This document shows, piece after piece, positions 1,714 to 29,942 of a stretch of 31,600 bases of DNA (positions are counted from its first letter, which is position 1; every line of letters starts with the position of its first letter). Below the pieces are notes generated by a model, which ran no database searches, had not been told where the DNA came from, and saw nothing but the letters and a program-made list of their open reading frames with translations. The position numbers were made by a program, and so were the translations under genes. The stretch is from an uncultured archaeon (GTDB lineage Archaea; Asgardarchaeota; Lokiarchaeia; Sigyniarchaeales; SOKP01). Where the stretch lies: NCBI GenBank assembly GCA_964388035.1, contig CAYLZE010000057.1, forward strand, positions 1 through 31,600, read 5' to 3'.

Positions 1714-1982
1714 ACATGTTCCATGAATTAAACCATTTTTTTTATTCTCATGAATTACATGATGTCGGTAAAAACTCTCAAAAATTCTCTCAAGAGTATA
1801 ATTCAAGAAAAGTTTAAATAACCAACTAAATTAGTGGAAGAGATAAAGTGAAAAACTGCTCTTTGATTAAAAATTAAATGATCATCTTATTTCTTTCTAA
1901 TTTTATATAACACATTTAAATACATCATAATTTTATTGTATTGATAATAAGTCTAATTAACAATTTTAAAAGATGATTTTTT

Positions 1983-3197
1983 TTGAATGAAGAGGAAATT
2001 CAAATCTATGGTTATCGCTGGATTGTACTTTTATTATTCATGTTTACGAATATAACTGTACAGATTCTTTGGATAAGCTTTGCTTCAGTAACTTCTTATG
2101 CGACAGCATTTTATGGAGTACAAGAAATTGCAATCTTTCTTTTATCAGCAATTTTTATGATTGTTTATATTCCAGTAACTTTTTTGGCATCGTGGCTAAT
2201 CGATAAGTACGATTTTAAAAAGGGAACGGGGATTGGAGCCGTTTTGGTGGCAATATTCGGGTTTTTACGCTTTTTAGCTGGCTCTAATTATTCATTAGTT
2301 TTAGTTTTTCAAATTGGAATAGCTATTGGCCAACCATTTATCATGAATAGCGTTACCAAAATGTCTAATAATTGGTTTCCTAAATCAGAGAGAACCACCG
2401 CAACGGGACTAGGGATGATTTCGATGTTTCTTGGAATTGGCTTAGGACTAATACTAACTTCCTTCATTGTTGATGCAATAAATTTTTCAGCAATGATTTT
2501 AATTTATGGAATAATGGCACTTTGCTCTGGAACACTATTCATTATCTTTGTCAGGAATAGACCCCCTACCCCACCTTCTACGGATAGAACTATTGAAAAG
2601 GTTTTCGTATTTGAGGGAGTGAAGCAATTATTTAAAAACAAATATTTTATAATCTTGGTCATTACTTTTGTTCTTGGCTTAGGAATTTTTAACATGATTA
2701 CAACCTACATTGAGGTCATTGTGATTCCTAGAGGGTTTAATTCCATTTTTGCAGGTATTTTAGGTGGATTAATGTTACTTGGAGGAATAATTGGTTGCAT
2801 TATCATTTCGCAATTATCGGACAAGTATCAAGAAAAGAGAATATTGTTAATAATAATATGTATTCTGATCGCAACGGTTTCCTTATATGGCATGACCTTT
2901 TCTCGAGATGGCACCTTATTATTGCTTTTTGGATTTTTCTTCGGGTTTGGGTTGCTATCTTCATCGCCCGTCGCGTTAGAGTATGCTGTTGATATAACGA
3001 GCCCAGTACCAGAAGCGAGTAGTAACGGAATACTCATGATGGTGGGACAAGCTTCAGGTATCATTTTTATATTTGGTTTTGCCAATTTTACAAATGCAGC
3101 TGGGGATTACTTGCCGGCATTACTCACACAGTCGATTCTGCTCACTGCTTTATTCGTTTTAACTTTTTTCTTGAAGGAAAGAAAGAAAAAATCTTGA
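1983..3197 (+). CDS. MFS transporter (FLVCR/SLC49-like)
   Basis: 404 aa with ~12 hydrophobic segments, YGYRWIVL N-terminus, WLIDKYD and LSDKYQ motif-A-like loops, and WFPKSERTTATG. TTG start. Confidence 0.9.
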   Translation: MNEEEIQIYGYRWIVLLLFMFTNITVQILWISFASVTSYATAFYGVQEIAIFLLSAIFMIVYIPVTFLASWLIDKYDFKKGTGIGAVLVAIFGFLRFLAGSNYSLVLVFQIGIAIGQPFIMNSVTKMSNNWFPKSERTTATGLGMISMFLGIGLGLILTSFIVDAINFSAMILIYGIMALCSGTLFIIFVRNRPPTPPSTDRTIEKVFVFEGVKQLFKNKYFIILVITFVLGLGIFNMITTYIEVIVIPRGFNSIFAGILGGLMLLGGIIGCIIISQLSDKYQEKRILLIIICILIATVSLYGMTFSRDGTLLLLFGFFFGFGLLSSSPVALEYAVDITSPVPEASSNGILMMVGQASGIIFIFGFANFTNAAGDYLPALLTQSILLTALFVLTFFLKERKKKS

Positions 3198-3357
3198 TGG
3201 AGATTAATTAAAAGTTCTAAATCATTGGTAATATATTATTCTTTTTTATTTTTCTAAAATTTATGTACTTTTTTTTTAATATTACAATGTATTATTTTAA
3301 ATTTATAGGCATTCCTTAATTATATAAGAAAATGCAATTAAATTCATCAATTTTAAC

Positions 3358-8078: not shown

Positions 8079-10850
8079 CTATTCGATTATGATAACTTCT
8101 GTTTTATTTTTGATTTGTTCCTCGCTCTTAGCTTTTTCTAGAAAATACGGATCGATAATTTTTTCAATCTCTTTTAAATCGTAATGTCTGGGCTCGATTG
8201 CTTTTAACCTACATGTAGCAGCACATCGGCCGCATCCTTTGCATAATGCCGGATTAATAAATGCTTTTTTCGTAGGAATGCTGACCTCTTCATATTCTTG
8301 AGGAGTATCAAGAAGAGAAATAGCTTTGAATTGACAAATTTCTTGGCATCTTCCACATCCATTACATTTTTCCGTATTTACCTGCATTTCTTTCAAGGAA
8401 CATTCAATAGAAAGCAAGAAGGAGAGCATTTCTAACTTGGTCGTGGAAATCTCTTCCATCGTTAAAAATCTACTTGCTCTGCCTGCTGCTGCCTTAGCTT
8501 CTACAATGGAATCCTGAACGTTCTTTGGCCATTGTGCACAACCACAAATGAAGATACCTTCTGTAGAAAAATCTAACGGTCTCATTTTCTTATGAGCTCC
8601 AATAAAAAATCCATTTATATCCAATGGGATCTTTAGCATGAAAGCCAAATCTTGGAGGTCATCAGGAGGGATTAGTGGCGTAGATAATATGACAAGATCC
8701 GTTTTAACATGTATATCTTTACTGGAATCCTGGAGATCTCGTAACGTAATTTCATATTGCTCGGGATTTTCCTTTATTTTTGTAACTTGGGGGATATTTT
8801 CCAAATTGTACTTTAAATAAGTTGCTACTTTTTTTCTTTCAGATGCAAATGCTTCAAACTCTTTTTTCGCCATGTGAAGGTCCCTAAAAAGAACCAGGGT
8901 CTCAAGTTCTGGTTTTATCTTTTTTAAGATATTTATATTTTTAAGGGTATTACTACAACATATATTAGAACAATAAGAGAAACCTCCTTTTTGTCTTGCA
9001 TTTACACACATGATGGTAGTGACATGGTCAATATTATCAAGCCAAGAGTTTGATTCATTTTTTAATAGATTTTCTAACTCTAATTGGGTAATAACTCGCT
9101 TATTCCTTTCATCATACTGAAATAATCCATGAGGTATATATTCTTGGCTTCCGGTGGCTATTATAATGACTCCTGCTTTTAATACATTGACATTTTCATT
9201 GGAATCTATCATGGAGATATTATAATTACCAATGGTGCCAGATATCTCTTTAATCTTAGAATTTGTGAAAATTTGAATATATTTATTGTTATTAACTTTA
9301 TCCACAATTTCATGTAAAAGAACTGAGGCTTTGTGCTGGATGGGATATAAAACATTGATATAATTTAAGATACCGCCCAATTGATTTTCTTTTTCAACAA
9401 TATACGTATTAAAACCTTGATCACTAATGGATAATGCTGCGGTCATTCCGGAAATTCCGCCCCCAATTATTAACGCGGTAGGATTAATGCGTATTATTTC
9501 TTTTTCTGGTAAAATATCCACTTCTTTATCTCTTGTCAAGGAATATCTTGCAGACTTTAAAGCGGTTGCTACTTGAGAAGCCACTCCACTGGCATCAGCC
9601 ACTGTTTCCGTAATATTCATTGGCCCATGACAAAATCCACATAAAAAAATACCTTCCCGGGCGGAGGCGGATTTATTGAAGTACGATTGCTCCTTGAAAA
9701 AACCAAAATCATCTAAATCTATATCCAAAACATTGGAAAGTTCTTTAGTTCCCTTGGAAGGCACCAAAGGCGCTGCTAAAACTGCGAGACTAGTCCTAAA
9801 AATATTATTAATTTCTTTTGTTTTTAGATCGTCATAATAAATAAGAATATCCTTTGTTTTCGGATCCTCTTCAATTTTATTAATTTTCGAATGATAATAC
9901 TGAATTCCATGCATCTCGCTAGCTTCTTTAGTATATTCATAGAAATTTCTGCCAAACACTCTAATATGATGTCGAAAAACAGCAACTTGAACACTGGGCA
10001 GGTATTCATGAGCTAAAATACCATTTTTGGTGGTGTACATACAACATACTCGTGAGCAATAAGCTGTATCGTTTTCTAAATACCCCGAGCTTGCGCAATG
10101 AATAAACGCAATTTTTTCTGGTTCTTTCTCGTCGCTTGGACGCAGTATTTTCATTCCAAAAGGTCCCGTAGGACATAGCATTCGCTCAAATTCTAAAGCA
10201 TTCACAACGTTTTTATATTCATATCCCCATTTCGGTGCTAATTCTGTACTTAGCATGTCAAATCCCGTGGCTATTATTATAGCTCCTACTTTAATCTTAG
10301 TCTCTTGTGGTTTTTGTTCAAAATTAATAGCTTGTGCTTTGCATATTTTCTGACAGACGCCGCACACGCCTCTATTTAAATAAAGACATAAATTAGCATC
10401 AATCAAATATACGGGAGGAGTTGCTTGGGGAAAGGGAATATAAATTGATTTTCTTTTGCCTAAATTCATGTCAAAGATGTTAGGAGCTTCAACCTTAGGA
10501 CATTTCCTCGCACAATCTCCACATCCACGGCATTTTGTCTCATCTACATATCGAGGATTCTTTTTGATGGTAATAGAAAAATTTCCTAATTCTCCATTAA
10601 CTTTTGTGATTTCTGATAAAGTTAATAATTCTATATTGGGATTTTTATAAACTCCAATCATTTTGGGAGCAAGCGAGCATAAAGAACAATTCATATCAGG
10701 AAATAATTTGTCAAATTGAGCCATCCTCCCTCCTATTGAGGGTTCTCTTTCCACTAAATACACTTTATATCCTAATTCCGTTAAATCTAACGACGCTTGA
10801 ATGCCTCCAATTCCACCACCTATAACTAAAACAGACCCTTCCATAACCAT
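8079..10850 (-). CDS. hdrA: HdrA-like flavoprotein with two FAD modules (923 aa), lacking the internal HdrA N-terminal-type Fe-S domain
   Basis: Two GGGIxG dinucleotide-binding motifs, CRGCGDCARKCP and C-terminal 2x CxxCxxCxxxC. Close paralog of 11844..14933. Confidence 0.88.
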   Translation of the reverse strand: MVMEGSVLVIGGGIGGIQASLDLTELGYKVYLVEREPSIGGRMAQFDKLFPDMNCSLCSLAPKMIGVYKNPNIELLTLSEITKVNGELGNFSITIKKNPRYVDETKCRGCGDCARKCPKVEAPNIFDMNLGKRKSIYIPFPQATPPVYLIDANLCLYLNRGVCGVCQKICKAQAINFEQKPQETKIKVGAIIIATGFDMLSTELAPKWGYEYKNVVNALEFERMLCPTGPFGMKILRPSDEKEPEKIAFIHCASSGYLENDTAYCSRVCCMYTTKNGILAHEYLPSVQVAVFRHHIRVFGRNFYEYTKEASEMHGIQYYHSKINKIEEDPKTKDILIYYDDLKTKEINNIFRTSLAVLAAPLVPSKGTKELSNVLDIDLDDFGFFKEQSYFNKSASAREGIFLCGFCHGPMNITETVADASGVASQVATALKSARYSLTRDKEVDILPEKEIIRINPTALIIGGGISGMTAALSISDQGFNTYIVEKENQLGGILNYINVLYPIQHKASVLLHEIVDKVNNNKYIQIFTNSKIKEISGTIGNYNISMIDSNENVNVLKAGVIIIATGSQEYIPHGLFQYDERNKRVITQLELENLLKNESNSWLDNIDHVTTIMCVNARQKGGFSYCSNICCSNTLKNINILKKIKPELETLVLFRDLHMAKKEFEAFASERKKVATYLKYNLENIPQVTKIKENPEQYEITLRDLQDSSKDIHVKTDLVILSTPLIPPDDLQDLAFMLKIPLDINGFFIGAHKKMRPLDFSTEGIFICGCAQWPKNVQDSIVEAKAAAGRASRFLTMEEISTTKLEMLSFLLSIECSLKEMQVNTEKCNGCGRCQEICQFKAISLLDTPQEYEEVSIPTKKAFINPALCKGCGRCAATCRLKAIEPRHYDLKEIEKIIDPYFLEKAKSEEQIKNKTEVIIIE

Positions 10851-11378: not shown

Positions 11379-11819
11379 TTAGGTTAATTTTTTTAATGGA
11401 CCTAATTCTTTAATTTGGTTGGTAAATTCGGTTATTAAATCTGCAAACTTCTTACCTTCCGAGGCACTCACCCATTCTAATCTCACACGCCTTCCATCTA
11501 TTCCTAATTGTTTAACAATAATCTCATGTAACTTTTTAAATCTATCACGGGTATATTCATTTCCCGTGATGTAATGGCAATCGCCAATATGACATCCCGT
11601 GATGAGGACACCATCTGCTCCATCTTTCAGTGCCTTCATAATAAAGGAAGGATCAACTCTTCCCGAGCACATGACGCGAACAATTCTCATGTTAGGTGGA
11701 TATTGAAAACGAGAAACTCCTGCTAAATCTGCACCAGCATAAGAACACCAATTACAACAAAAGGTTAATATTTCTGGATTAAATTCCGTTTTTGCTTCTT
11801 TTTTTTTTGATTTTGACAT
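11379..11819 (-). CDS. mvhD: MvhD/FlpD [2Fe-2S] subunit, cysteine form
   Basis: FCCNWCSYAGADLAG, RVMCSGRVD, GCHIGDCHY and WVSASEG. SD AGGTGAG upstream. Confidence 0.95.
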   Translation of the reverse strand: MSKSKKKEAKTEFNPEILTFCCNWCSYAGADLAGVSRFQYPPNMRIVRVMCSGRVDPSFIMKALKDGADGVLITGCHIGDCHYITGNEYTRDRFKKLHEIIVKQLGIDGRRVRLEWVSASEGKKFADLITEFTNQIKELGPLKKLT

Positions 11820-11843
11820 TTCTTTCTCACCTGTTTAATAAAT

Positions 11844-14800
11844 TCATTCCTCCAATAGATATGCTTCAATCATCTCGTAAATTTGATCGAAATCATAATG
11901 CTTAACGGAGATTGCTCCATTCGGGCATGTCGCGGCACACGTTCCACAACCTTTGCATAAGGCGCTATTGATAAAAGATTTTTTTAGAACAAGATTCACA
12001 TCCTCAAATTCCATTAACGCCTCTTTAATTTCAATGGCATTGTATGGGCAAACAGACTTGCATTTTCCACAACCTATACATCTTGAAGGTATTACTTCCG
12101 CTATTAATCCAGAAGTTTTAATCGTTTTGGCACTCAAAAATCTACTTGCCCGTCCAGCGGCGCCGTTCGCTTGCGAAATCGAATCTTGTATGTTTTTTGG
12201 CCATTGAGCACACCCCGCAAGAAAGATTCCATCCGTAGCAAAATCAAGAGGTCTCAATTTAACATGAGCTTCTAAAAAGAACCCGTTTTTATCAAGAGGT
12301 ACTTTTAACATTTTCGCTAATTCCGTGAGGTTATCCGCGGGGATCATGGGAGTAGATAAAATGATTGCATCCGTATCAAATTCGATTTGATCTTGTAAAT
12401 TTGTATCGAATACCTCAATTCTAAATCCACTCGTCTTATCCTTCTTTTTAGTAATTTTTGGTAGGTTATCCAAATCATATCTTAAAAACATGGCATCTCT
12501 TCTTCGATCTCGATAATATCTTTCAAATTCTTTTTTTGCCATTTGAATATCCCGATATAAAAGAATAATCTCTAAATCAGGCTTTAATTCTTTAAGGATG
12601 CCAATATTTTTTATGCTCACACCACAACACACGTTAGAACAATAGGTAATTCCTTCTGGTTGACGAGCATTCACACATAAAATCATGGTAATCCGTTTTA
12701 TCTCATCTAACCAAGAGAGATCTTTATTTTTTAATCTCTGTTCGAGCTCTAACTGTGTTAAGACATTTTTACTCTCGGGTTTATATTGAAATAATCCTTC
12801 AGGCTTAAACTCTTGGGCACCTGTAGCCACGATAATTGTACCTACTGCTTTTTCGTGAGGATTTTGTTTTGAATCGAGTATTGTTACTTTGTAGTTTCCT
12901 ATATATCCTTTAATATCTTGGAGTTTGGAAGTTAAAAATAACTCAATGTTATTGTTTTTTTCGACTTTATTTTTTATATCGTTTAAAATAATAGATGCAT
13001 CTTGTTGGATGGGATATAAAATATTAAGATTTTTCAAGTTTCCTCCTAATTCATTTTCTTTTTCAACCAGAAACACTTTAAATCCTTGATTAGCAATGTT
13101 TAACGCTGCAGTCATCCCGGAGATACCACCCCCTATTATTAACGTGGTAGGAATGATATCTAATTTTTCTTCCTTAAGTGGTTTTAACAATCGGGATTTT
13201 GCAACTGCCATCCTAATTAAGTCTTTAGCTTTATCCGTTGCAGCTTTATTATCTCCCATGTGAACCCAAGAGCATTGATCTCGAATATTTACCATTTCAA
13301 ATAAATATTTATTCAGGCCTGCCTCTTCACAAGTTTCTTGAAACAAGGATTCATGAGTTCTTGGCGTACAAGAGGCAACAATAAATCTATTCATTTTATA
13401 TTCCTCTATCATTTGCTTTATCCTTGCTTGTGAATCACTGGAACAACTATAAAGATTAGCTTCGCAATGAACTACAAACGGTAGCTTATTCACATATTCA
13501 ACCACGGTCGAAACATCCACGTATTTTCCGATATTAATTCCACAATGACACACAAGCACTCCAATCCTTGGTTGATCAGAGATTTTTACCTCAATCTCTG
13601 GGACCGTGAATATTTTTTCTTTAACTTGAGTATACTTAACAGAATTTAATAAATTAGCCACTTGAGAGGCTACCCCACTAGCATCTGCCACCGTTTCCGG
13701 TATGTCCATTGGTCCTTGGCAAAACCCGCATAGAAATATACCTTCCTTCGTTGCTACTGACTTATTAAAATAATCTTTTTCTTGGAAAAAATCATATCCA
13801 TCTAATTTTACATCTAAGATTCTTGCCAATTCCTTAACACCTTCAGAAGGTACCAACGGTGTGGCGAGTACGACCAAATTTGCTTCAAAATCATTAAATT
13901 CCCCCGTTTTAAGATCTTCATAATGGATGATTAAATCCTTAGTCTCGGGATTTTCTTCTATAGTACTTATTTTGGTTTGAAAATATTTAACGCCATACTC
14001 TTCCTGAGCTCTTGTAGTAAATTCATAAAAATTTTTCCCATACGCTCTTATATCATGTCGAAATACAAAACATTTCGACTTTTCAGAGTGTTCTTTTGTT
14101 ATTATGGCTTCTTTTGCTGTATACATGCAACACACGCTGGAACAATACGGCACCCCTTCGTGTAAATCCCTTGAACCTGCACATTGAACGAAGGCAATTT
14201 TTTTAGGTTCTTCCTGATCGCTCGGACGGAGCACATGTCCTCCAAAAGGACCCGAAGCACATAAGATTCTTTCATATTCCAAGGCACTCACCACGTTCTC
14301 GTGGCGATATCCCCACCTTGAAGATAATTTCTCCGCTGGCATGTCAAATCCAGTGGCAACCACTATGGCTCCTACTTTAATTTCAATATCCTTGGCTTTT
14401 TGTTCATAGTTTATGGCTTCTGCCTTGCATACTTTTTGACAAACACCGCATACTCCTTTTGTTAATTTCAAGCAAAGTTCAGGATCAATTAAGTAAATGG
14501 GCGGTACAGCTTGAGGAAAAGGAATATAAATTGATTTTCGTTTTCCCAAATTCATATCAAAAAGATTAGGTACTTCAATCTTAGGACACTTCGCTGCACA
14601 ATCACCACAACCCTTGCACTTTGTTTCGTCTATATAACGAGGCTTTTTTGTTACTATAACAGTAAAATTCCCAGGTCCTCCCGATACATTTTTCACTTCA
14701 TGATACGTCATTAGTTCTATATTCGGATTTCTAAAGACCTCAACCATCTTAGGTGCTAAAATACAGAGACTACAATCATTCGTAGGAAAAGTTTTATCCA

Positions 14801-14933
14801 GCTGGGACATTCGACCTCCAATGGAGGGGGTTTTTTCTACTAAATAGACTTTAAATCCAAGCTCTGTTAGATCTAATGAAGTTTGAATTCCAGCGATTCC
14901 CCCACCAATAACTAAGACCGAACCCTCCATCAT
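11844..14933 (-). CDS. hdrA: Large HdrA-like flavoprotein with two FAD modules (1029 aa), cysteine form
   Basis: GGGIAG, DKTFPTNDCSLC, inserted ferredoxin, QCAGSRD...YCSSVCC, internal VCHCGINI...SCTPRTHE...NIRDQCSW domain, second GGGISG and C-terminal 2x[4Fe-4S]. The start overlaps the upstream stop (TAATG). Confidence 0.93.
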   Translation of the reverse strand: MMEGSVLVIGGGIAGIQTSLDLTELGFKVYLVEKTPSIGGRMSQLDKTFPTNDCSLCILAPKMVEVFRNPNIELMTYHEVKNVSGGPGNFTVIVTKKPRYIDETKCKGCGDCAAKCPKIEVPNLFDMNLGKRKSIYIPFPQAVPPIYLIDPELCLKLTKGVCGVCQKVCKAEAINYEQKAKDIEIKVGAIVVATGFDMPAEKLSSRWGYRHENVVSALEYERILCASGPFGGHVLRPSDQEEPKKIAFVQCAGSRDLHEGVPYCSSVCCMYTAKEAIITKEHSEKSKCFVFRHDIRAYGKNFYEFTTRAQEEYGVKYFQTKISTIEENPETKDLIIHYEDLKTGEFNDFEANLVVLATPLVPSEGVKELARILDVKLDGYDFFQEKDYFNKSVATKEGIFLCGFCQGPMDIPETVADASGVASQVANLLNSVKYTQVKEKIFTVPEIEVKISDQPRIGVLVCHCGINIGKYVDVSTVVEYVNKLPFVVHCEANLYSCSSDSQARIKQMIEEYKMNRFIVASCTPRTHESLFQETCEEAGLNKYLFEMVNIRDQCSWVHMGDNKAATDKAKDLIRMAVAKSRLLKPLKEEKLDIIPTTLIIGGGISGMTAALNIANQGFKVFLVEKENELGGNLKNLNILYPIQQDASIILNDIKNKVEKNNNIELFLTSKLQDIKGYIGNYKVTILDSKQNPHEKAVGTIIVATGAQEFKPEGLFQYKPESKNVLTQLELEQRLKNKDLSWLDEIKRITMILCVNARQPEGITYCSNVCCGVSIKNIGILKELKPDLEIILLYRDIQMAKKEFERYYRDRRRDAMFLRYDLDNLPKITKKKDKTSGFRIEVFDTNLQDQIEFDTDAIILSTPMIPADNLTELAKMLKVPLDKNGFFLEAHVKLRPLDFATDGIFLAGCAQWPKNIQDSISQANGAAGRASRFLSAKTIKTSGLIAEVIPSRCIGCGKCKSVCPYNAIEIKEALMEFEDVNLVLKKSFINSALCKGCGTCAATCPNGAISVKHYDFDQIYEMIEAYLLEE

Positions 14934-16114
14934 TACTTTACCTCCTCATTTTTTTTTGATTGAATTACTTCCACATGATCTACCAGAAATTCAGAAAAAT
15001 CTTTAATCTCTATCGATTGTAAATTCTCAAAATCAGCTTTTAAACAATTAAAATGAATTTTACATTTAGGACAAGAGGTAATGAGAAGATCTCCGACATT
15101 TTTAACTTCTAACATGCGTTTATATCGAAGGGCTTTTGATTTTTCATTACAATTTGTCCAACAACTAACACCACAACAGAGTGAATTTTCCTTATTATGA
15201 ACCATCTCTTGAAATTCATAGCCCAATTTCTTAAATTCATTGAAAATTTCGCGTGCTTGCTCGGTGATATCATTATTGGGTAAAAATCTACTCAATCTAC
15301 ATGGATCATGATAAGTAAAAGGAATCAGATTATCCTTTTCATTTGGATTTTTAAATTTAATTTTATTTGCTTTCCAATTTTCATAAATATATTCAATAAG
15401 ATGCTTAACTTGAAATTTCTGATTATAAGAATCATCCAATTTAGGATAATCAATCTTTAATGTTCGATAACATTCCGCACATGCTGTAACTATGGTTGAT
15501 ATTCCCGCTTTTTCAAACATGTCGATATTTTTTCTTGCTAATTTGATGAATGTCTTTAATTTCCCTTGCCCCCAATAAATATCATGCCCACAACAAATTT
15601 CTTCCTTAAATACTACTATAGGCGTGTTCTCAATTTGACAGAGCATTTTTAATGTACTGGTAGCAATAGAATCGGATTTATCAAATTCATAGTTAAAAAA
15701 AGGAAGACATCCCACAAAATATAATAATTCTCCTTGTTCTGCTATCTGACAATCTTTAGGAACCCATTCAAGAGATCTATCTGGTTGAATATAAGGACGG
15801 GCCATCATTTCTGTAATAGTTGTATACATGCCCTTATGTGCAATGATTTCTTCCGGTTTTTGATTCAGCTCATGACGCATTTTATATCTTGCCATTCTTA
15901 CAATATCGGCAAAATTTATATTTTCAGGACAATCTTTTAAGCACTGATTACAGGTGAGGCAATCCCATAACACGCCGCTTTGAAGCACTTTATCTTCGAA
16001 TCCTTCTAAAATCATTTCTATTATCCGACTGGGGGTATACTTCTGAACCTTGCTCAGTTGACACACTCCCGAACAGCGTGCACATTGGTAACATTTTTTT
16101 AAAAGAGACCTCAA
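14933..16114 (-). CDS. HdrD-like (HdrC-HdrB fusion type) Fe-S oxidoreductase with two CCG domains
   Basis: CYQCARCSGVC and CLTCNQCLKDCP, then YFVGC...CCG...TACAEC and YHDPC...CCG...SCPKC. The true start may be upstream (ATT at 16201). Confidence 0.9.
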   Translation of the reverse strand: MRSLLKKCYQCARCSGVCQLSKVQKYTPSRIIEMILEGFEDKVLQSGVLWDCLTCNQCLKDCPENINFADIVRMARYKMRHELNQKPEEIIAHKGMYTTITEMMARPYIQPDRSLEWVPKDCQIAEQGELLYFVGCLPFFNYEFDKSDSIATSTLKMLCQIENTPIVVFKEEICCGHDIYWGQGKLKTFIKLARKNIDMFEKAGISTIVTACAECYRTLKIDYPKLDDSYNQKFQVKHLIEYIYENWKANKIKFKNPNEKDNLIPFTYHDPCRLSRFLPNNDITEQAREIFNEFKKLGYEFQEMVHNKENSLCCGVSCWTNCNEKSKALRYKRMLEVKNVGDLLITSCPKCKIHFNCLKADFENLQSIEIKDFSEFLVDHVEVIQSKKNEEVK

Positions 16115-16223: not shown

Positions 16224-17333
16224 TTAACTCAAATTTTTCATGAACTTTTCTTTACGTTCTATTTTTGATTGGGAAAAATGAGAGATCAATTCCATCATTT
16301 TTTCCTTTTTAGCTTGACTCAATTCCATGCAAGTAATAATACCCGCATCCAATGCTCGTGAGAATAATTCCTTTCCTTTTTCAGTCCTAATAATAACGGT
16401 GGTATATTTATCTTGGGACCCCAACCCTCCAAAAGAAAGATCGGAATAAATATTGGTGAAATCATTACACGCATTGCATGCAGGACGCATGTATTTACTT
16501 AAGTGATTAAAAGGGATGTGAACAACTTTTTCTCGGGAATCTTTATCCCTTAATTTAAATATCACATCCTCCTTGATATTAATTTTAATGATATCTTTAA
16601 ACTTGATGTTGAAATCGTTTTCAAATTTTTCAATTTGTGATTTTTCGAATAAAAAATTTTCATAACAGAATAACCCTAGACAAATTTCTATGTTCTCAGA
16701 TGGGGTGACACCTAACTCTTGCATGCAACGAATTGTATAAACTTGACAGGGTGTTCCCACTACGGCTAATTTTTTAAATTTATAATGATTTAATTCGGGG
16801 ATGGAATGAGTATAAGTGCAAAATTTTTGAATTTCATCTAATTGGTGAGTTATATCCAACCTTGCCCCAGAGGCCTGCAATAAATCTTCTTTATTAGATG
16901 CAAATGTAGCTTCTCTCGAAAATGGTGCATCTGTTTTAGATACAATTGCTCCATCCACGATTTTTTCTTGTATTAAAAAGTTAATTAATGAGTTTACCAC
17001 GCCTCCATCAGTACCATTATCTAAAAATTCTTTATCAGTTGCTTGACAAGATTGAATTTCTTTCATGTTTCCTATAGGCATGACGGTAAAATTAGAGAAT
17101 TGATAACTTTTATTAAGATCATCATCTAATACGTGAGTTTGAGGGCATATTATGTAACATATTCCACATTCCAAGCAAGCATCTTTATTTATATATTCTG
17201 GAGGATGGAATAAATCTTTCAATCCAATTACACCATATTCTGCTGAAGAGCAGAAGCTCACGCAGCCTCCACATTCTTGGCAGATGCCTTTATCGTGTAC
17301 TTCCTCTATTAGATTTTGAAATGTTTTTGTCAC
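16224..17333 (-). CDS. FrhB/FdhB family F420-binding subunit with N-terminal ferredoxin
   Basis: CQECGGCVSFC, CLECGICYIICP, DGGVV, VVGTPCQ, LGLFCYENF and ACNACNDF. GTG start with SD GGAGG. Confidence 0.9.
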   Translation of the reverse strand: MTKTFQNLIEEVHDKGICQECGGCVSFCSSAEYGVIGLKDLFHPPEYINKDACLECGICYIICPQTHVLDDDLNKSYQFSNFTVMPIGNMKEIQSCQATDKEFLDNGTDGGVVNSLINFLIQEKIVDGAIVSKTDAPFSREATFASNKEDLLQASGARLDITHQLDEIQKFCTYTHSIPELNHYKFKKLAVVGTPCQVYTIRCMQELGVTPSENIEICLGLFCYENFLFEKSQIEKFENDFNIKFKDIIKINIKEDVIFKLRDKDSREKVVHIPFNHLSKYMRPACNACNDFTNIYSDLSFGGLGSQDKYTTVIIRTEKGKELFSRALDAGIITCMELSQAKKEKMMELISHFSQSKIERKEKFMKNLS

Positions 17334-17351
17334 GGTTAAATTGAACCTCCT

Positions 17352-18860
17352 TTATTTTTCTTCCTTTGGGGCATTTAATTGAACAGGTTTACATTTACTT
17401 CTTTTACTCCCACCAATTCTTTCAACCAAAAATAGCCCTGGTTTCACGTCTTTTAATTTTTTAGACTCCAATAAGCCCGCTTTTTCAGCATTTTTAAAGA
17501 TTTCCAAGCACTCTTCGGAACGAATCACCACGGATGACCATCCAGCTTGAGACCCGATGGAGCCAACTGAAAAATCGCTGAAATCAGAAGTCAAGTCTTC
17601 ACAGAAATGACAAGTATTGCGGGCATAAGATTGAACTTCTTTCAAAGGAACATCTAATTCTTCTCCATTTTTCAAATTTATGATGAATTTTCCCGAATCA
17701 ATATTCATTTTGGTTAGGTCATTGATATCTTTTTTGAATTTCTCACTTATCAATTTTTTAGTATCGTCATAGGAAAATGACTCCATGCAAAATAAACCAA
17801 TCCTATATTTAATATTCTTGAAAAAAGGAAGCCCGCTTGGAAATAACGTGGCTTTATACAGAGCCTTCATCATGCAAGGAACACCTACAACAGCGATCCT
17901 ATCATACTTTTTGGCTTGATCGATAATGCCCAAAGTGGGGGCATTTGCATATTTAGTTCCTGCCGTTTTATATAAATCCTTCACGCTTTCAACGATCACG
18001 GGTTCAGGTTTCCAAAGATCTTTAGAATGCTGAACGGCAATAATCGCATCAACCAAGTCATTTTCCAAGAGATATTGTAGGAGTGTAGTAACCACCCCTC
18101 CATCCTGGCGAACCTTCTTAATATCATCAATTTTTGTGCTTGCCGTAAAAGTTTCTACGTAAGCACCAATTTTATCGGAAAATTTTAAATTTTTATCAAT
18201 TTTCTTAATAGCCGCATAAGCCCTATCAATAGAAAAGGAGCGTGGGCACACCGAAAAACAGAGACCACATTTTATGCAGACTTCTTTATCAATTTCGAGG
18301 GTATCTGCTGAAACTGTAATGGCATCCAACGGACAAACCGAAGAGCACCATCCACAATTACAACATACCCCAGAATCAAACACGATGGTTACTGGTTCAA
18401 AAAAATGTTCCTTGAAATTTGGGGATAACACTTTTGCTTGGTATCGATAAAAATACTCCTTGACCTCAACTTCTTTTTCTTCATCCTTTATTTTTTTTAT
18501 TTCCGTGTGAGTTTTAATTTCGACTTGTTCTTCAACATATCCTTGTTCTTTTAAATAAAAGATATCCCGAACCACGTTTTCTGGAGGTATGTCTTGAATT
18601 AACTTCACTACATCCTCTATAAACATTGGTTCTTTATTTGTCAACCGTTCAAGAACTAATGCGCGTTCGGTTTCCGCATCTATCATGGAATCTAAAATAT
18701 CATAAAATTCTTGCTCGGAAAATTTTCCATGTTCTATAATCTCTTCTTTTGCTTCAAAAAATGCCCTCACTTGAAAATTTTCGATTGCCTTGTAAGTAGC
18801 TTCCATCAACTCCTTTGGAGCGCTATTATTTAAATCAACTTTTTTTATTGTTTGAACCAT
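17352..18860 (-). CDS. FrhB/FdhB family F420-binding subunit with ~155-aa N-terminal extension
   Basis: CCNCGWCSSVCP, CIKCGLCFSVCP, QDGGVVT, AGTKY, VGVPC, IGLFCMESF, CHFCED and SVGSIGS. Confidence 0.92.
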   Translation of the reverse strand: MVQTIKKVDLNNSAPKELMEATYKAIENFQVRAFFEAKEEIIEHGKFSEQEFYDILDSMIDAETERALVLERLTNKEPMFIEDVVKLIQDIPPENVVRDIFYLKEQGYVEEQVEIKTHTEIKKIKDEEKEVEVKEYFYRYQAKVLSPNFKEHFFEPVTIVFDSGVCCNCGWCSSVCPLDAITVSADTLEIDKEVCIKCGLCFSVCPRSFSIDRAYAAIKKIDKNLKFSDKIGAYVETFTASTKIDDIKKVRQDGGVVTTLLQYLLENDLVDAIIAVQHSKDLWKPEPVIVESVKDLYKTAGTKYANAPTLGIIDQAKKYDRIAVVGVPCMMKALYKATLFPSGLPFFKNIKYRIGLFCMESFSYDDTKKLISEKFKKDINDLTKMNIDSGKFIINLKNGEELDVPLKEVQSYARNTCHFCEDLTSDFSDFSVGSIGSQAGWSSVVIRSEECLEIFKNAEKAGLLESKKLKDVKPGLFLVERIGGSKRSKCKPVQLNAPKEEK

Positions 18861-18919
18861 TCCGTTAAAACAACCTTTTCATTTTACTTTTTTTTATATT
18901 TAAATAAAAATGGTGATTT

Positions 18920-18993
18920 CTAACCCCAACCCTTGCTTGAGTTAGTTTTCTCGTAACTAAGATTTTTTTACAAGAATCATTCCACGGGGTTAG
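18920..18993 (-). promoter_or_regulatory. Candidate SECIS element (3' stem-loop immediately after the Sec-mvhD stop)
   Basis: mRNA CUAACCCC-GUGGAAUGAUUCUUGUAAAAAAAUCUUAGUUACGAGAAAACUAACUCAAGCAAGGGUU-GGGGUUAG. It has a perfect 8-bp closing helix, further internal helices, AUGA/GAA and an unpaired A-run. Its position fits a SECIS, but a canonical tandem G.A core is not cleanly formed. Confidence 0.6.
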
Positions 18994-19437
18994 TTAAACT
19001 TTGGCTTTTTTCTTTGTCGTGTTTTTTCCAGAAGATCTAAGAGGATTTATTCCTATCCGCTTGATTTTTTCGTAGGTATCTTCCACGCTCTTCACAAATT
19101 TCTCTCCTTCTGCACTGCTTAACCAATACATGTTAATTCTCTGATCTCCAAATCCTCTTCTGCTCAAGATACGATTGGCAAAATCGACGTGCTTTTGAGC
19201 GGTAAAATTGCCGTTCTTAAATTGGCATTCGTTGGGTCGTCATCCAACCACCATTACTCCATCAGCACCGGATTTTATTGCATAGATAATATGCTTTACA
19301 TCCACTCTACCCGTACACCTGACCTTTATAATGCGTACTGAAGGAGTATATTTTAACCGAGAGACGCCTGCTAAATCTGCAGCACCGTAACCTCATTTTA
19401 AACAGCAAAAAGCAATGATTTTAAAGTTGTTTTCCAT
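18994..19437 (-). CDS. mvhD: Selenoprotein MvhD/VhuD (147 aa, two Sec), absent from the ORF track
   Basis: Manual translation gives MENNFKIIAFCCLK-U-GYGAADLAGVSR...VRCTGRVD...GADGVMVVG-U-RPNECQFKNGN...YWLSSAEGEKF...KAKV*. TGA at 19393-19395 (codon 15) and 19240-19242 (codon 66) align to Cys of the paralog at 11379..11819. SD GGAGG, TAA stop. Confidence 0.93.
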
Positions 19438-19441
19438 TTGT

Positions 19442-21424
19442 TTAACCTCCTTCTATTAATCCGTCTAATTCGGCAAATAATTGATGATCCCGATAATATC
19501 GGATGTCAATTGCTTGCGTGGGACAGCATGTGGAACATATACCGCATCCAGTGCAATTCACTTCATCTACAGATGCTATCTCATTCTCATTTACTCGAAT
19601 CGCCCCTTGGGGACATTCTCGTTGACATCGCCGACAACCAATGCATAAATCAGGATCCACTTCTGCAATAATCATCTCTAAATCCACCTTGCCAGGGGCG
19701 GTTAATTCCGCTACTTTACTGGCAGCCGCACGAGCTTGAGAGACAGAATATGCTATATCCTTGGGACCTTGTGCAAATCCTGCTATGAAAATACCCTTCG
19801 TTTTAGTTTCTTGTGGCATGAGACCGAAATGGGATTCCGTTAAAAATCCATATTGATCCTTATCAAGATTTAATACTTTGGCGATTTGTTCCGTTCCCTT
19901 CGAAGGTAATGCAGCAGAGGATAATACCACGAGATCCGCATCAATATTGATTATTTCATCGGTTAAAGACGAATATACTCGAACCTTGATGTTTTTTGTT
20001 TTAGGATCTTCTTTCAATTCTCCCACTTTGCCCCGTATCATGCGAATATCGGAATCCTTGGCTCTTTGATAATATTCTTCAAAACCTTTTTCACTCGTTC
20101 GAATATCGATGTAGCAAATAGTGATTTTAGCATTAGGAAATTCCTCTTTCAAAAGTTTTGCATTTTTCAACGCAAGCATGCAGCACACGCCACTACAATA
20201 GGTTCTTTCAGTTTCCCTGGATCCCACGCATTGAATGAATACAATTTCTTCCGGTTTCTTATTATCGGATATGCGGTGGATATGGCCTTCCAACGGCCCA
20301 TTAGGAGCAAGGATCCGCTCTAATTGGGATTGTGTAATAACATTTTCAAACTCACCATATCCATACTCACCGTAGGGTTCATAAATGTCCCAACCCGTTG
20401 CAACTATGATGGATCCAACTTTAAATGTAACTTCCTCCGGTTTTTGGCTGAAATCTATGGCATGTAACTCGCAAGCATCCACGCATGAAAAGCATTCCAC
20501 GCACGAAGTTCTTTGGATATCATATAAGAAGGGGACGGCTTGACCAAAGGCAATGTCTATAGCTTTTCGAGCACCTAAATTTTCATCGAAGAAATTGGAG
20601 GTATACACGGGACACACTTCTGAGCAAGCACCACATCCATTACATAGATCAGTATTGATGTATCTTGGTTTCTTTTCCACGGTGACTTCATAATTGCCCA
20701 CGTATCCTTCCACTTTTTTCACTTCACTATAGCTAAACAGTTGAATATTCTCATTCCGATTGACGTCTAACATTTTGGGCCCACAGATTCAAATTGCACA
20801 ATCATCCGTGGGAAAGGTCCGATCTAATTGCGCCATTCTGCCTCCGATGGTAGTTCTGCTTTCCACCAAGTAAACTTTAATTCCTTCATTCGCAAGATCC
20901 AAGGCAGCATTCATCCCGGCAATGCCTCCACCGACGACTAAAGTTGCTTTTTCCACGGGAAAGGTCTTGACGGGTACCACGTCCAATAATCGCGCTCTTT
21001 CTATTCCCCCTTTTAATAGAATTTTAGCTTTTTCGGTAGCTTCTTCTTTTTCTTGGGTGACCCAACTGCAGTGCTCTCGCACATTTATCATCTGAAAATA
21101 GTAGGGATTTAATCCTGCTTTTGCAATCGAGCCGCGATAGATGGGTTCGTGGGTTCTTGGGGTTCAAGCAGACGCAATAATGCGATCTAAATTTTTCTCC
21201 TTGATATTTTGCATGATCTCATTCTGCCCCGATTCAGTACAAAGGAACGAATGTGTTTTAGCAACGACAATATCATCAAAAGTTTTCGCATATTCAACGA
21301 GTTTATCACAGTCGACTTTAGATTTAATGTTAATTCCTCACTGACAAGCAAAAAAGCCCATTCGCAGTTTTTCTTCGCTTCTTTTTCCTTGACTGGGTTT
21401 ATCTTCCATCTTTTTTTTCTCCAT
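19442..21424 (-). CDS. hdrA: Selenoprotein heterodisulfide reductase subunit A (660 aa, three Sec)
   Basis: One continuous frame from ATG 21424 (or 21409) to TAA 19442 with TGA at 21338-21340 (FACQ-U-GINI), 21164-21166 (IASA-U-TPRTHE) and 20789-20791 (FPTDDCAI-U-ICGPKM). It joins ORF-track pieces 20789..21091 and 19442..20773 into a canonical-length HdrA. Confidence 0.93.
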
Positions 21425-21840
21425 TCACCTCTAATTTACTAATATAACCTAATATAATTTTTTAATAAGTTTTTCAGATCTTTTAACTATAATCTGATTC
21501 TAGTTTAAATCAAATTTCGAAAAGTTTTATTCTTTTTCATTTAGAATGATAATTATTATATAAATTTTAATGATAATTCTATTTATACTTAACTAACTAT
21601 CTTAATAAGTCAAATCCGAAAATACAATTAACAATTTTAGTAATTTTATTACATCTCGATAATTTTAGATAAAAAAGTGGGCGAAAGAAATTAAAATTAG
21701 TATTCCACTATCAATAAAATAGATTTTTTATGAGATTTATATTCTAATTCACCGTAAAATGATGGTTTTTAATATTTTCAGAGAAATTTTTTTATTTAAA
21801 ATCGAGGTTTCCAACCTTAATTTTATCTTTAAAAAGAATA

Positions 21841-22563
21841 TCATTTGGTCCAATTGTCTTCATGGAAAACGATTATAGATAATGGGATAATCCAAATCAA
21901 AATTGAAAAGAGCAACATCCATTCAAAATATGGTGCCAAGAAGGAGCCCATTTGGTTGATAATTAAAAATAAGATCAGCGCGCTACTGGGACCAAATACG
22001 CCATATACGCCTAATGGCTTCGGGATTCCAGTATCGTAGAAGAGAATGAGGAATCCCATTAACATGGCAGCGAGTGTAAACCCTCCAAAAGCTAAAGCGG
22101 AAGTATAGGAGTGCAGGTTGAAATAATTCCTATCTTCAGAGAAGATCCCCACCCCGATGTACCCCACATTTCCAATTAAACTAGACAGTAAAGTATAGGT
22201 ACTAAGAGCTAACCTTAGTTTGGATATTTTTTTCGCCCTTACTTTTGTTTTGGGTAATGGTGCTAAATATTGTTCCATGTAGAAGGAAAAAGGCACGGTT
22301 AACATGCCTGCAAAAATGCAAGCAATATCATATAAATATGGTACAGGAGTAAAAGCAGATCCTCCCAAATCACTTATCCAGTTAAGAGTTAGAGAATATC
22401 CTTGAGGACCAAAGATAGCGGCGATAATAACGCTTAGAATTAATAAAGGAATGTAAATTGATATGCCTAAAATCATGCAGGTTCTCGCGACCTTAAATTT
22501 AGGTATCTGATTTAATATGCTTTTAACACTATTAAATTTCTTCTTTGAGTCTTTAATCATCAT
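21841..22563 (-). CDS. DUF998 family membrane protein
   Basis: GYSLTLNWISDLG motif, VGIFSED, conserved His (LHSY) and ~6 TM segments. Confidence 0.75.
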   Translation of the reverse strand: MMIKDSKKKFNSVKSILNQIPKFKVARTCMILGISIYIPLLILSVIIAAIFGPQGYSLTLNWISDLGGSAFTPVPYLYDIACIFAGMLTVPFSFYMEQYLAPLPKTKVRAKKISKLRLALSTYTLLSSLIGNVGYIGVGIFSEDRNYFNLHSYTSALAFGGFTLAAMLMGFLILFYDTGIPKPLGVYGVFGPSSALILFLIINQMGSFLAPYFEWMLLFSILIWIIPLSIIVFHEDNWTK

Positions 22564-28739: not shown

Positions 28740-28784
28740 TTTATTTCTTTTTAATTCCTTTTCTATATTTTAAATCTGTACGTG

Positions 28785-29942
28785 TCAATAACTTCTAAAT
28801 TCAATTATTGAATCATAAAGAGCTACGATATTTTGGGGCGGAACTTCTGCCGTGATATTATGGATATTTGCCGCAACATATCCCCCGTTGGGTTTGAAGC
28901 AATCCATGTTATATTTCACTTCCTTTCTGACCTGCTCTGGAGTACCAAACGGTAAGATCTTTTGAGTATCGCACGCGCCCCCCCAAAAAGAAATAATATT
29001 ACCATATTTTCTTTTCAATACGCAAGGGTCCATGTTCCGCGCAGAAACTTGCACGGGATTAAACGCATCATATCCATTTTCAGCAAAATAAGGCAAGAAT
29101 TGGGAACTGGCCCCACAAGAATGATAATTGATTTTCACACTTGCTAATTCGTGAATTTTCTGTGCGAGCCTTTTTTCATAAGGTTGGATGAGCTTTTCAT
29201 ACAATTGCACGTTAAGTATCGGTCCATTTTGCTCAGCAAGATCTCCATTAACGCATACCACGTCTAAAAATTCACCCACTTCCCCCAGAAATGTCTCATT
29301 ATAATCAATCCAATAGATAAGAAGTTCTTTCATGGTAGCTTCAATTAATTCGGGTTTTTTTAACGTGTATCGAATAGCTTTTGTAAATCCGAATAAGAAC
29401 GTGCAATTTTCAAAAATACACCCTATAGGAGGCGATACCAAGGCATGGTCCGTGTTTTCATGAAAGTTTTTAGCTCGTTCTCGCAAGCCATTAAATGGGG
29501 TCTTATCCTTCCCGTTTGGCCAGTCATAATTTCTAATTTCCGACACGGTTGTAAAGAATTCAAAAGGATGGATGACGGGGTCATAATAAAGGATTTCTTC
29601 AAGATCTTTATCGGCTGAATTACCATAAAAAACCCCAAATTTGTCATAAATCCCTACATACTTGCCTTCATATTCAGGAGTAAAATTTTCTTTCAGCATG
29701 CTACTGAACGGACGAATATAGCGAGTATCTGATTGAAATCTTTGCAGAAGTTTCTCACAAGGGACAACGTTCTGCTCTACAAAATCTGCAAACCTAATAT
29801 CTTCATCCTTTATCCCAAGATAATCAAGTAAATTTTTATAAGCTTTGACATGAATGCTGGATTGATCTCCACCAAGATCAATCGGAACTTTATCTGGCTC
29901 CTGATGATTTAAAGCGGTATTTAACCTTTCACGTGGATTCAT
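28785..29942 (-). CDS. Uroporphyrinogen decarboxylase-fold protein (MtaA/CmuA-like methyltransferase family)
   Basis: MNPRER...HQEPDKVPIDLGG, GDL, YHSCG, NPVQ, FWGG..DTQKILPFGTPEQV and HNI. Confidence 0.85.
   Translation of the reverse strand: MNPRERLNTALNHQEPDKVPIDLGGDQSSIHVKAYKNLLDYLGIKDEDIRFADFVEQNVVPCEKLLQRFQSDTRYIRPFSSMLKENFTPEYEGKYVGIYDKFGVFYGNSADKDLEEILYYDPVIHPFEFFTTVSEIRNYDWPNGKDKTPFNGLRERAKNFHENTDHALVSPPIGCIFENCTFLFGFTKAIRYTLKKPELIEATMKELLIYWIDYNETFLGEVGEFLDVVCVNGDLAEQNGPILNVQLYEKLIQPYEKRLAQKIHELASVKINYHSCGASSQFLPYFAENGYDAFNPVQVSARNMDPCVLKRKYGNIISFWGGACDTQKILPFGTPEQVRKEVKYNMDCFKPNGGYVAANIHNITAEVPPQNIVALYDSIIEFRSY

Follow-up and report, generated by a model that had tools for sequence, protein, structure and literature searches.

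The locus described here raises the question of what several selenocysteine (Sec) residues are doing in a single HdrA protein. It lies in a 31,600 nt stretch of DNA (hereafter, the window), positions 1 to 31,600 of contig CAYLZE010000057.1 in assembly GCA_964388035.1 of an uncultured archaeon, and comprises an hdrA gene with three in-frame TGA codons, followed by vhuD. An earlier note, made from the letters of the window, had suggested that the three Sec residues may converge on one iron-sulfur cluster as selenolate ligands. The gene is an intact hdrA of a Promethearchaeota (Lokiarchaeia-type) archaeon in which UGA is read as selenocysteine. The best reading of the three residues is that they come together at a single site, two of them as probable cluster ligands and the third as a transient neighbour. 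The proposed convergence is thus retained in so far as all three belong to one functional site, but fixed ligation of one cluster by all of them was not supported.

An hdrA Gene with Three In-Frame UGA Codons

When TGA is translated as Sec (U), hdrA forms one open frame that closes at a TAA stop; standard open reading frame (ORF) calling splits it into four pieces. The frame contains exactly three in-frame TGA, at codons 29, 87 and 212, and these fall in the motifs C27-Q-U29, A-U87-TPRTHEP and DDC209-A-I-U212-I-C214. Codon 62, in the motif HSFLC62, specifies Cys. The earlier note had read the three codons, their motifs and Cys62 in the same way, and the interval it gave (20789-21340) has the third and the first TGA as its ends.

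The predicted protein can be aligned over its full length with HdrA chains of solved structure, namely 9sfi_A of M. maripaludis (E 2.5e-207) and 5odc_A of M. thermolithotrophicus (residues 18-657 against residues 2-650, E 1.2e-200). Pfam matches place FAD/NAD Rossmann signatures at residues 158-216, marking the GxGxxG FAD site of a thioredoxin reductase-like flavin domain, and Fer4 signatures at residues 254-319 and 586-640, marking two ferredoxin domains. The Cys motifs for six [4Fe-4S] clusters are all present as Cys or Sec: those of the N-terminal domain (N-domain), a Cx10Cx3CC motif (Cys399, 410, 414 and 415) and two ferredoxin domains of the 2x[4Fe-4S] type. They are conserved in 77-80 of 80 orthologues, a set of species-level related loci drawn mostly from metagenome-assembled genomes (MAGs) of Promethearchaeota/Promethearchaeia, with 74-82% protein identity. 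In the points tested, i.e., flavin domain, cluster motifs and N-domain fold, the protein is a type I HdrA.

The third site, U212, is the equivalent of Cys205 in M. marburgensis HdrA and of the residue printed X (Sec197) in 9sfi_A, and this is the only site at which the latter chain has Sec. By the same alignment offset, Cys209 corresponds to M. marburgensis Cys202. Methanococcal HdrA has a single Sec, at DCxxU (PMC4989117; 9sfi_A), as the earlier note had stated, and its claim that the two additional Sec replace conserved N-domain Cys is borne out by their alignment (Table 1).

Conservation of the Sec Positions

Codons 29, 87 and 212 are TGA in 78, 78 and 80 of the 80 orthologues, so that their placement is far beyond chance. 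Across 144 diverse HdrA N-domains, positions 29 and 87 are each Cys in 141. Position 27 is Cys in 79/80 orthologues and in 141/144 diverse N-domains, and position 209 is Cys in all 80 orthologues; neither was ever Sec in the sample. Position 62 is the variable one, being U in 55 orthologues and C in 23, with Cys in 140 of the diverse N-domains. The full pattern C27-U29-U62-U87-C209-U212-C214 is found at 55/80 loci, and the same pattern with Cys62, which is that of the window, at 23/80. The commonest state of the orthogroup is therefore four Sec, and not three.

Among 400 genomes of the phylum, orthologues carry from three to five TGA each. In the wider sample the order of Sec gains is 212 together with 29, then 87 and then 62, and the two-Sec forms of Asgard HdrA all have exactly 29 and 212. 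This series is partly represented in the genome that contains the window, which encodes seven full-length HdrA: the window copy with three TGA, three with two TGA (29 and 212), and three all-Cys forms, one of them fused to MvhD.

The fixed Sec sites (29, 62, 87 and 212) all lie within a set of six (27, 29, 62, 87, 209 and 212), the protein having 31 Cys/Sec positions in all, a concentration that argues against random placement. The chance that all three Sec would fall in those six is 20/4495 = 0.004, for a set of six that was defined after the data had been seen.

The vhuD Gene and a Single SECIS Element

The gene directly downstream, vhuD (mvhD), itself has two in-frame TGA, and the counterparts of VhuD U15 and U66 are both X in M. 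maripaludis 9sfi_K. VhuD relatives, collected by a phmmer search, share five invariant Cys/Sec positions (12, 15, 41, 66 and 71). Since position 15 corresponds to MvhD Cys16, which is reported not to be a ligand, U66 would by elimination be a ligand of the [2Fe-2S] cluster of VhuD.

Beyond the vhuD stop lies a selenocysteine insertion sequence (SECIS) of the lokiSECIS type. The 9-bp stem and 11-nt loop are as described by Mariotti 2016 (PMC4989117), and the AUGA_AA core is a variant reported by Huang 2024 (PMC11227280). A scan of positions 17001-21700 with the strict pattern returned this one match, making it the sole element near the five UGA codons. The same strict pattern was found after vhuD at 39 of the 80 related loci, with compensatory changes in the stem. 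An Rfam scan of positions 18500-21700 (E<=10) gave chance matches alone, Rfam having no lokiSECIS family. SepSecS was found in the genome (E 3.5e-115). All five UGA, three in hdrA and two in vhuD, would be decoded as Sec by way of this one eukaryote-like element.

A Shine-Dalgarno-like GGAGG for vhuD is found at 19445-19456 (-), within the final codons of hdrA and 8-12 nt before the vhuD ATG. Such a position would be expected if the two selenoprotein genes were translationally coupled.

Table 1. Coordinates of hdrA, vhuD and their Sec-related features, with the HdrA paralogues of the same genome.
Feature	Position	Strand	Remarks
hdrA	19442..21424	-	660 codons; single open frame if TGA is Sec
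Sec29 TGA	21338..21340	-	C27-x-U29 motif, in the N-terminal domain loop past strand 1; aligns with Cys13 of 5odc_A
Sec87 TGA	21164..21166	-	A-U-TPRTHEP, right behind N-terminal domain strand 3; aligns with Cys71 of 5odc_A
Sec212 TGA	20789..20791	-	C209-xx-U212 pair, canonical HdrA Sec site; aligns with Cys197 of 5odc_A (M. thermolithotrophicus)
Cys62 codon	21239..21241	-	HSFLC motif; Sec in most orthologues
Cys27 codon	21344..21346	-	Fourth near-invariant N-domain Cys; never Sec in sample
Cys209 codon	20798..20800	-	First half of CxxU pair; never Sec in sample
Cys214 codon	20783..20785	-	Extra Cys giving C-x-x-U-x-C; orthogroup-specific
vhuD/mvhD	18994..19437	-	147 codons; begins 4 nt past hdrA stop; Pfam FlpD E 4.2e-46
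VhuD Sec15 TGA	19395-19393	-	Aligns with Cys16 of M. marburgensis MvhD 9sw2_D
VhuD Sec66 TGA	19242-19240	-	Aligns with Cys67 of M. marburgensis MvhD 9sw2_D
lokiSECIS	18946..18980	-	13 nt past vhuD stop; AUGA, 9-bp stem, 11-nt loop from AAAAA, AA
Six other HdrA paralogues, same genome	C4:112415-114349, C45:2109-4061, C32:1973-3910, C175:2898-4829, C5:105630-107600, C16:2293-4209		

The N-Terminal Domain and Its Cluster

The AlphaFold2 (AF2) model of residues 18-140 has a pLDDT of 96.7 and matches solved HdrA N-domains in Foldseek with template modelling (TM) scores of 0.92-0.96. Structural alignment with VIA-align to 5odc_A, 8rvy_A and 7bkd_A gave Z values of 21-23.5 and root-mean-square deviations of 0.8-1.0 A over 121-123 residues. 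In this model, from which the fold placement of Sec87 was also taken, the C-terminal ends of strands 1-3, where cofactors are usually bound in this fold, are occupied by residues 27, 29, 62 and 87. These are the only near-invariant Cys positions of the 144 diverse N-domains (140-141 in each case); position 119 is Cys in 102/144, and position 39 is not conserved.

The contact between N-domain and flavin domain is a textbook interface of solved HdrA homologues. The isolated [4Fe-4S] cluster of the N-domain, HA3, acts as a 'shuttle' that swings with a mobile arm, according to the cryo-electron microscopy (cryo-EM) studies of Murphy/Shima (PMC13580544, PMC12350162). If the cluster moves along with the arm, all four of its ligands must be supplied by the arm, which offers exactly four candidates; by elimination, U29 and U87 are thus most likely ligands of HA3 alongside C27 and C62. 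The four putative HA3 positions, as read from the alignment, are Sec at three of four in 55 of the 80 orthologues. The gene, its codons and how far they are conserved, the SECIS and the match to solved structures are shown directly, whereas the identity of the HA3-binding residues and any influence that selenium has on potential or rate are inferred. Literature searches on a selenolate- or Sec-ligated cluster in HdrA found nothing relevant, and those on HdrA Cys13/Cys46/Cys71 gave unrelated papers only.

The CxxU Pair and Cys214

Recent cryo-EM work treats the CxxC/U pair as redox-active and as lying beside the FAD of the partner rather than as a source of fixed ligands, reporting either an unknown density bound to the pair or the formation of an Se-S bond (PMC13580544, PMC13518236). 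In M. marburgensis HdrA, Cys202 and Cys205 are 'additional' Cys that bind unknown density in every state (PMC13580544), and the M. maripaludis structure has an Se-S-like feature at Sec197, between A3 and FAD. The corresponding pair of the HdrA-like BamE, Cys59-Cys62, was resolved at 1.9-2.5 A: in state 2 it is a disulfide, with the HA3-like E3 cluster at a distance of 3.4-3.5 A and FAD at 13.3 A, and in state 1 it lies about 16 A from E3 (bioRxiv 10.64898/2026.04.10.717634).

The published accounts disagree on the role of Cys197/Cys205. In Chadwick 2022 (PMC9012536) the ligands of the N-terminal cluster are N-domain Cys and Cys197 of the other HdrA, so that this last residue is donated by the partner, and elsewhere it is an 'additional' redox Cys. 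The two accounts would be reconciled if the pair were a redox switch that touches HA3 in one state only, a contact that would also explain its ligand-like appearance in the crystal.

Applied to the hdrA of the window, such a scheme would place the Sec residues along the gate of the bifurcating flavin. HA3, held by C27, U29, C62 and U87, would ride the mobile arm, and U212 and C209, here with C214 as well, would make up the flavin domain's redox-active CxxU pair. To judge by homologues, this pair may in one state face the [2Fe-2S] cluster of VhuD on the arm of the partner, and in the other the HA3 of HdrA itself, again on the partner's arm. It would probably cycle through a selenenylsulfide. 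The stronger version of this scheme, in which HA3 is a natural [4Fe-4S] cluster with two selenolates in this gene, or three in 55/80 orthologues, gated by a C-x-x-U-x-C selenenylsulfide switch of the partner, is about evenly balanced between true and false.

The extra Cys after the third Sec, pointed out in the earlier note, proved to be a constant of the orthogroup: position 214 is Cys in 80/80 orthologues, and Leu in the other paralogues and in the sampled relatives (47-68% identity). A CxxCxC arrangement was not found among the CxxC motifs of 150 diverse HdrA representatives. As to its role, one may guess at a thiol that resolves the selenenylsulfide, or at a third ligand of the unknown density.

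Weighing of Alternative Explanations

The preferred reading is that of a multi-Sec HdrA of the catalogued HdrA-VhuD orthogroup, served by one SECIS, with Sec at the flavin gate as two HA3 ligands and one transient neighbour; its probability is put at about 0.62. Several points weigh against it. The HA3 ligands were assigned by elimination, from alignment, conservation and published papers. If Cys197 is a ligand of the N-domain cluster (PMC9012536), then one of the four N-domain Cys is not, and if U29 is the counterpart of VhuD U15, and hence of the non-ligand MvhD Cys16, it could be an accessory residue. A fifth Sec is found in a few relatives at ferredoxin-motif Cys, at position 314 (loci L040, L047 and L048), 311 (L042-L044 and L049) or 627 (L050 and L060). 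These Cys belong to the inserted or the C-terminal ferredoxin domain, so that Sec gain is not confined to one site. A tRNA-Sec was not found in the MAG with either RF01852 or aragorn.

The alternative closest to the preferred reading keeps the gene and its recoding, and makes U29 an accessory selenol by the cluster, of the ferredoxin:thioredoxin reductase type, equivalent to MvhD Cys16, VhuD U15 and BamF Sec19. HA3 would then be held by C27, C62, U87 and, in the crystal state, U212 of the partner protomer, much as in the ligation described by Chadwick 2022. MvhD Cys16 is indeed reported as a non-ligand 'additional' Cys close to the [2Fe-2S] cluster (PMC13580544), and an hhalign comparison of the N-domain with VhuD pairs C62 with C41 and U87 with U66 in its confident core and, in the extended alignment only, C27 with C12 and U29 with U15. 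The status of 29 and 212 as the first-tier Sec pair would suit a selenol/selenol or selenol/thiol relay. However, HA3 moves with the arm, which is at odds with covalent ligation by the static core. The 'additional' Cys of PMC13580544 are HdrA Cys202/205 and MvhD Cys16, with no N-domain Cys named, and the HdrA N-domain is without the fifth Cys of MvhD. With E 1e-4 and a probability of 57%, the hhalign match is a weak one, and its confidence is low over the stretch with U29. Foldseek likewise placed MvhD chains amid generic Rossmann-like folds (TM 0.46-0.48, E 3e-3 to 7e-3), and Pfam FlpD did not match the N-domain at E<=0.001. The positional homology of N-domain and VhuD, as judged from these alignments, is suggestive and not firm, and an accessory U29 is considered unlikely, if not greatly so. 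Should the homology hold, both cluster modules of the mobile arm would have Sec at the same two positions of the fold, and both would dock in turn on the CxxU site.

It is also conceivable that the Sec residues have no common function, and that an efficient long-range lokiSECIS allows every UGA of the operon to be read as Sec, so that Cys-to-Sec changes drift in at Fe-S ligands as at other sites, their clustering being a historical accident. The sporadic Sec at 311, 314 and 627 in single species or small groups would be expected from such drift, as would the occurrence of either Cys or Sec at position 62 among close relatives and of all-Cys HdrA paralogues in the same genome. This is rendered improbable by the fixation of Sec at 29, 87 and 212 in 78-80 of the 80 species despite their divergence, by the motif partners C27 and C209, which are never Sec, by the ordered gains, and by the presence of Sec at the same two fold positions in VhuD. 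A reading of the TGA codons as true stops, in a broken gene or through assembly error, could appeal to the four pieces given by ORF calling and to the undetected tRNA-Sec. It is hardly credible for three TGA at conserved Cys codons that are kept across the orthologues, together with a conserved SECIS showing compensatory stem changes and a SepSecS gene. The missing tRNA-Sec is taken to reflect incompleteness of the MAG, and not absence, because aragorn detected 22 tRNAs in the whole MAG, an incomplete set.

Neighbouring Genes in the Window

Two FrhB/FdhB-like genes lie downstream of vhuD on the same strand, at 17352-18860 (-), which also has a ferredoxin domain, and at 16224-17333 (-). The same-strand cluster of hdrA continues with a gene for a CCG-domain and ferredoxin protein of the HdrB/C or HdrD type (14933-16114, -). 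Genes for a hydrogenase large or small subunit were not found within the window, so the electron donor of the Hdr may be an FrhB-type module and not a [NiFe] hydrogenase.

Two further genes encode fused 'type II' HdrA proteins of 1029 aa (11835-14933, -) and 923 aa (8079-10850, -). Between them, following the 1029-aa gene directly and preceding the 923-aa gene, is a second MvhD/FlpD gene (11379-11819, -; Pfam FlpD E 4.5e-56), which is all-Cys, of the CCNWCSYAGAD type. In the 1029-aa protein, the N-terminal flavin module lacks an N-domain and retains the FPTNDC-xx-C pair, and the second module has an N-domain with all four Cys and no CxxC pair. This complementarity of N-domain and CxxC pair in fused HdrA has been described (Chadwick 2022, PMC9012536), and it fits an interaction in trans of the N-domain cluster with the CxxC pair.

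Other TGA codons of the window were considered as Sec candidates and rejected. The TGA at codon 1030 of 11835-14933 is a plain stop codon, as are those of the ORFs 1941-3257 and 28770-29942, and the TGA of 21829-22563 is assumed to be likewise an ordinary stop.

Significance of the Sec Series

In itself the hdrA gene adds nothing new: the selenoprotein group that it joins has been published and catalogued, and genes of this kind are still cut by gene callers. The small addition made here is that the fixed Sec sites, 29, 62, 87 and 212, correspond to three of the four Cys of the shuttle-cluster domain and to the redox-active CxxC pair, the latter singled out by current cryo-EM papers as the step of HdrA-type electron bifurcation that still lacks an explanation. 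Should this assignment hold, genomes of Lokiarchaeia contain a natural Cys-to-Sec series at exactly this CxxC/shuttle step, and the paralogues with zero, two and three Sec in this one genome could help to test how the flavin and the arm clusters exchange electrons.

More would follow if HA3 does have selenolate ligands. Together with the Sec of VhuD, every arm-side electron to or from the bifurcating flavin would then pass selenium, and the all-Cys, two-, three- and four-Sec paralogues, some of them in one genome, would be a series for probing the effect of selenium on bifurcating Fe-S clusters.

Comparison with Known Systems

The closest published counterparts are the HdrA-VhuD pairs of Lokiarchaeota. 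Mariotti 2016 (PMC4989117) reported Loki HdrA carrying as many as four Sec, drawn from five positions, with one SECIS in common with VhuD, and the supplement of Huang 2024 (PMC11227280) has sequences with exactly the three-Sec pattern of the window (ACQXGIN, FLCTESG, SAXTP, FPTDDCAIXICG) as well as others with four Sec. The locus of the window shares with these pairs the gene order, the tiny spacer, the canonical Sec near residue 200 and the N-terminal Cys sites, the two-Sec VhuD, the single SECIS past vhuD and an hdrA stop other than UGA. Nothing of substance differs, there being three Sec here and four in most orthologues. Because multi-Sec HdrA is already the published norm in Lokiarchaeia, its novelty drops, as the earlier note had foreseen for that case. 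Mariotti 2016 also wrote that these Sec do not ligate a cluster, which was before the HdrA structure was available. That statement probably needs revising, and would be overturned if HA3 is bound by selenolates; this is the only new point, and a modest one.

Methanococcal HdrA (9SFI with Sec197, 5ODC with Cys197) has the same four-domain architecture, about 50% identity in the N-domain and all the cluster motifs, with Sec or Cys at DCxxC/U and a VhuD with two Sec at the same positions. It differs in having one Sec, with Cys at N-domain positions 13, 46 and 71, and Leu instead of Cys at +2 after the Sec. It comes from methanogens, in which its substrate is known (CoM-S-S-CoB).

BamE/BamF of the class II benzoyl-CoA reductase (BCRII) of G. 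metallireducens are alike in their HdrA-type bifurcating flavin and CxxC pair, and on the BamF side in an MvhD-like adaptor with Sec at the position equivalent to Cys16. BamE differs in being a fused, permuted bacterial HdrA dimer with an all-Cys CxxC pair, so that Sec is found in the adaptor only. Ferredoxin:thioredoxin reductase, an analogy drawn in the BCRII preprint (bioRxiv 10.64898/2026.04.10.717634), is alike in concept, with a redox-active dichalcogenide in van der Waals contact with a [4Fe-4S] cluster and the conversion of one-electron to two-electron chemistry. It has an unrelated fold and no homology to HdrA, and the comparison is thus one of mechanism alone.

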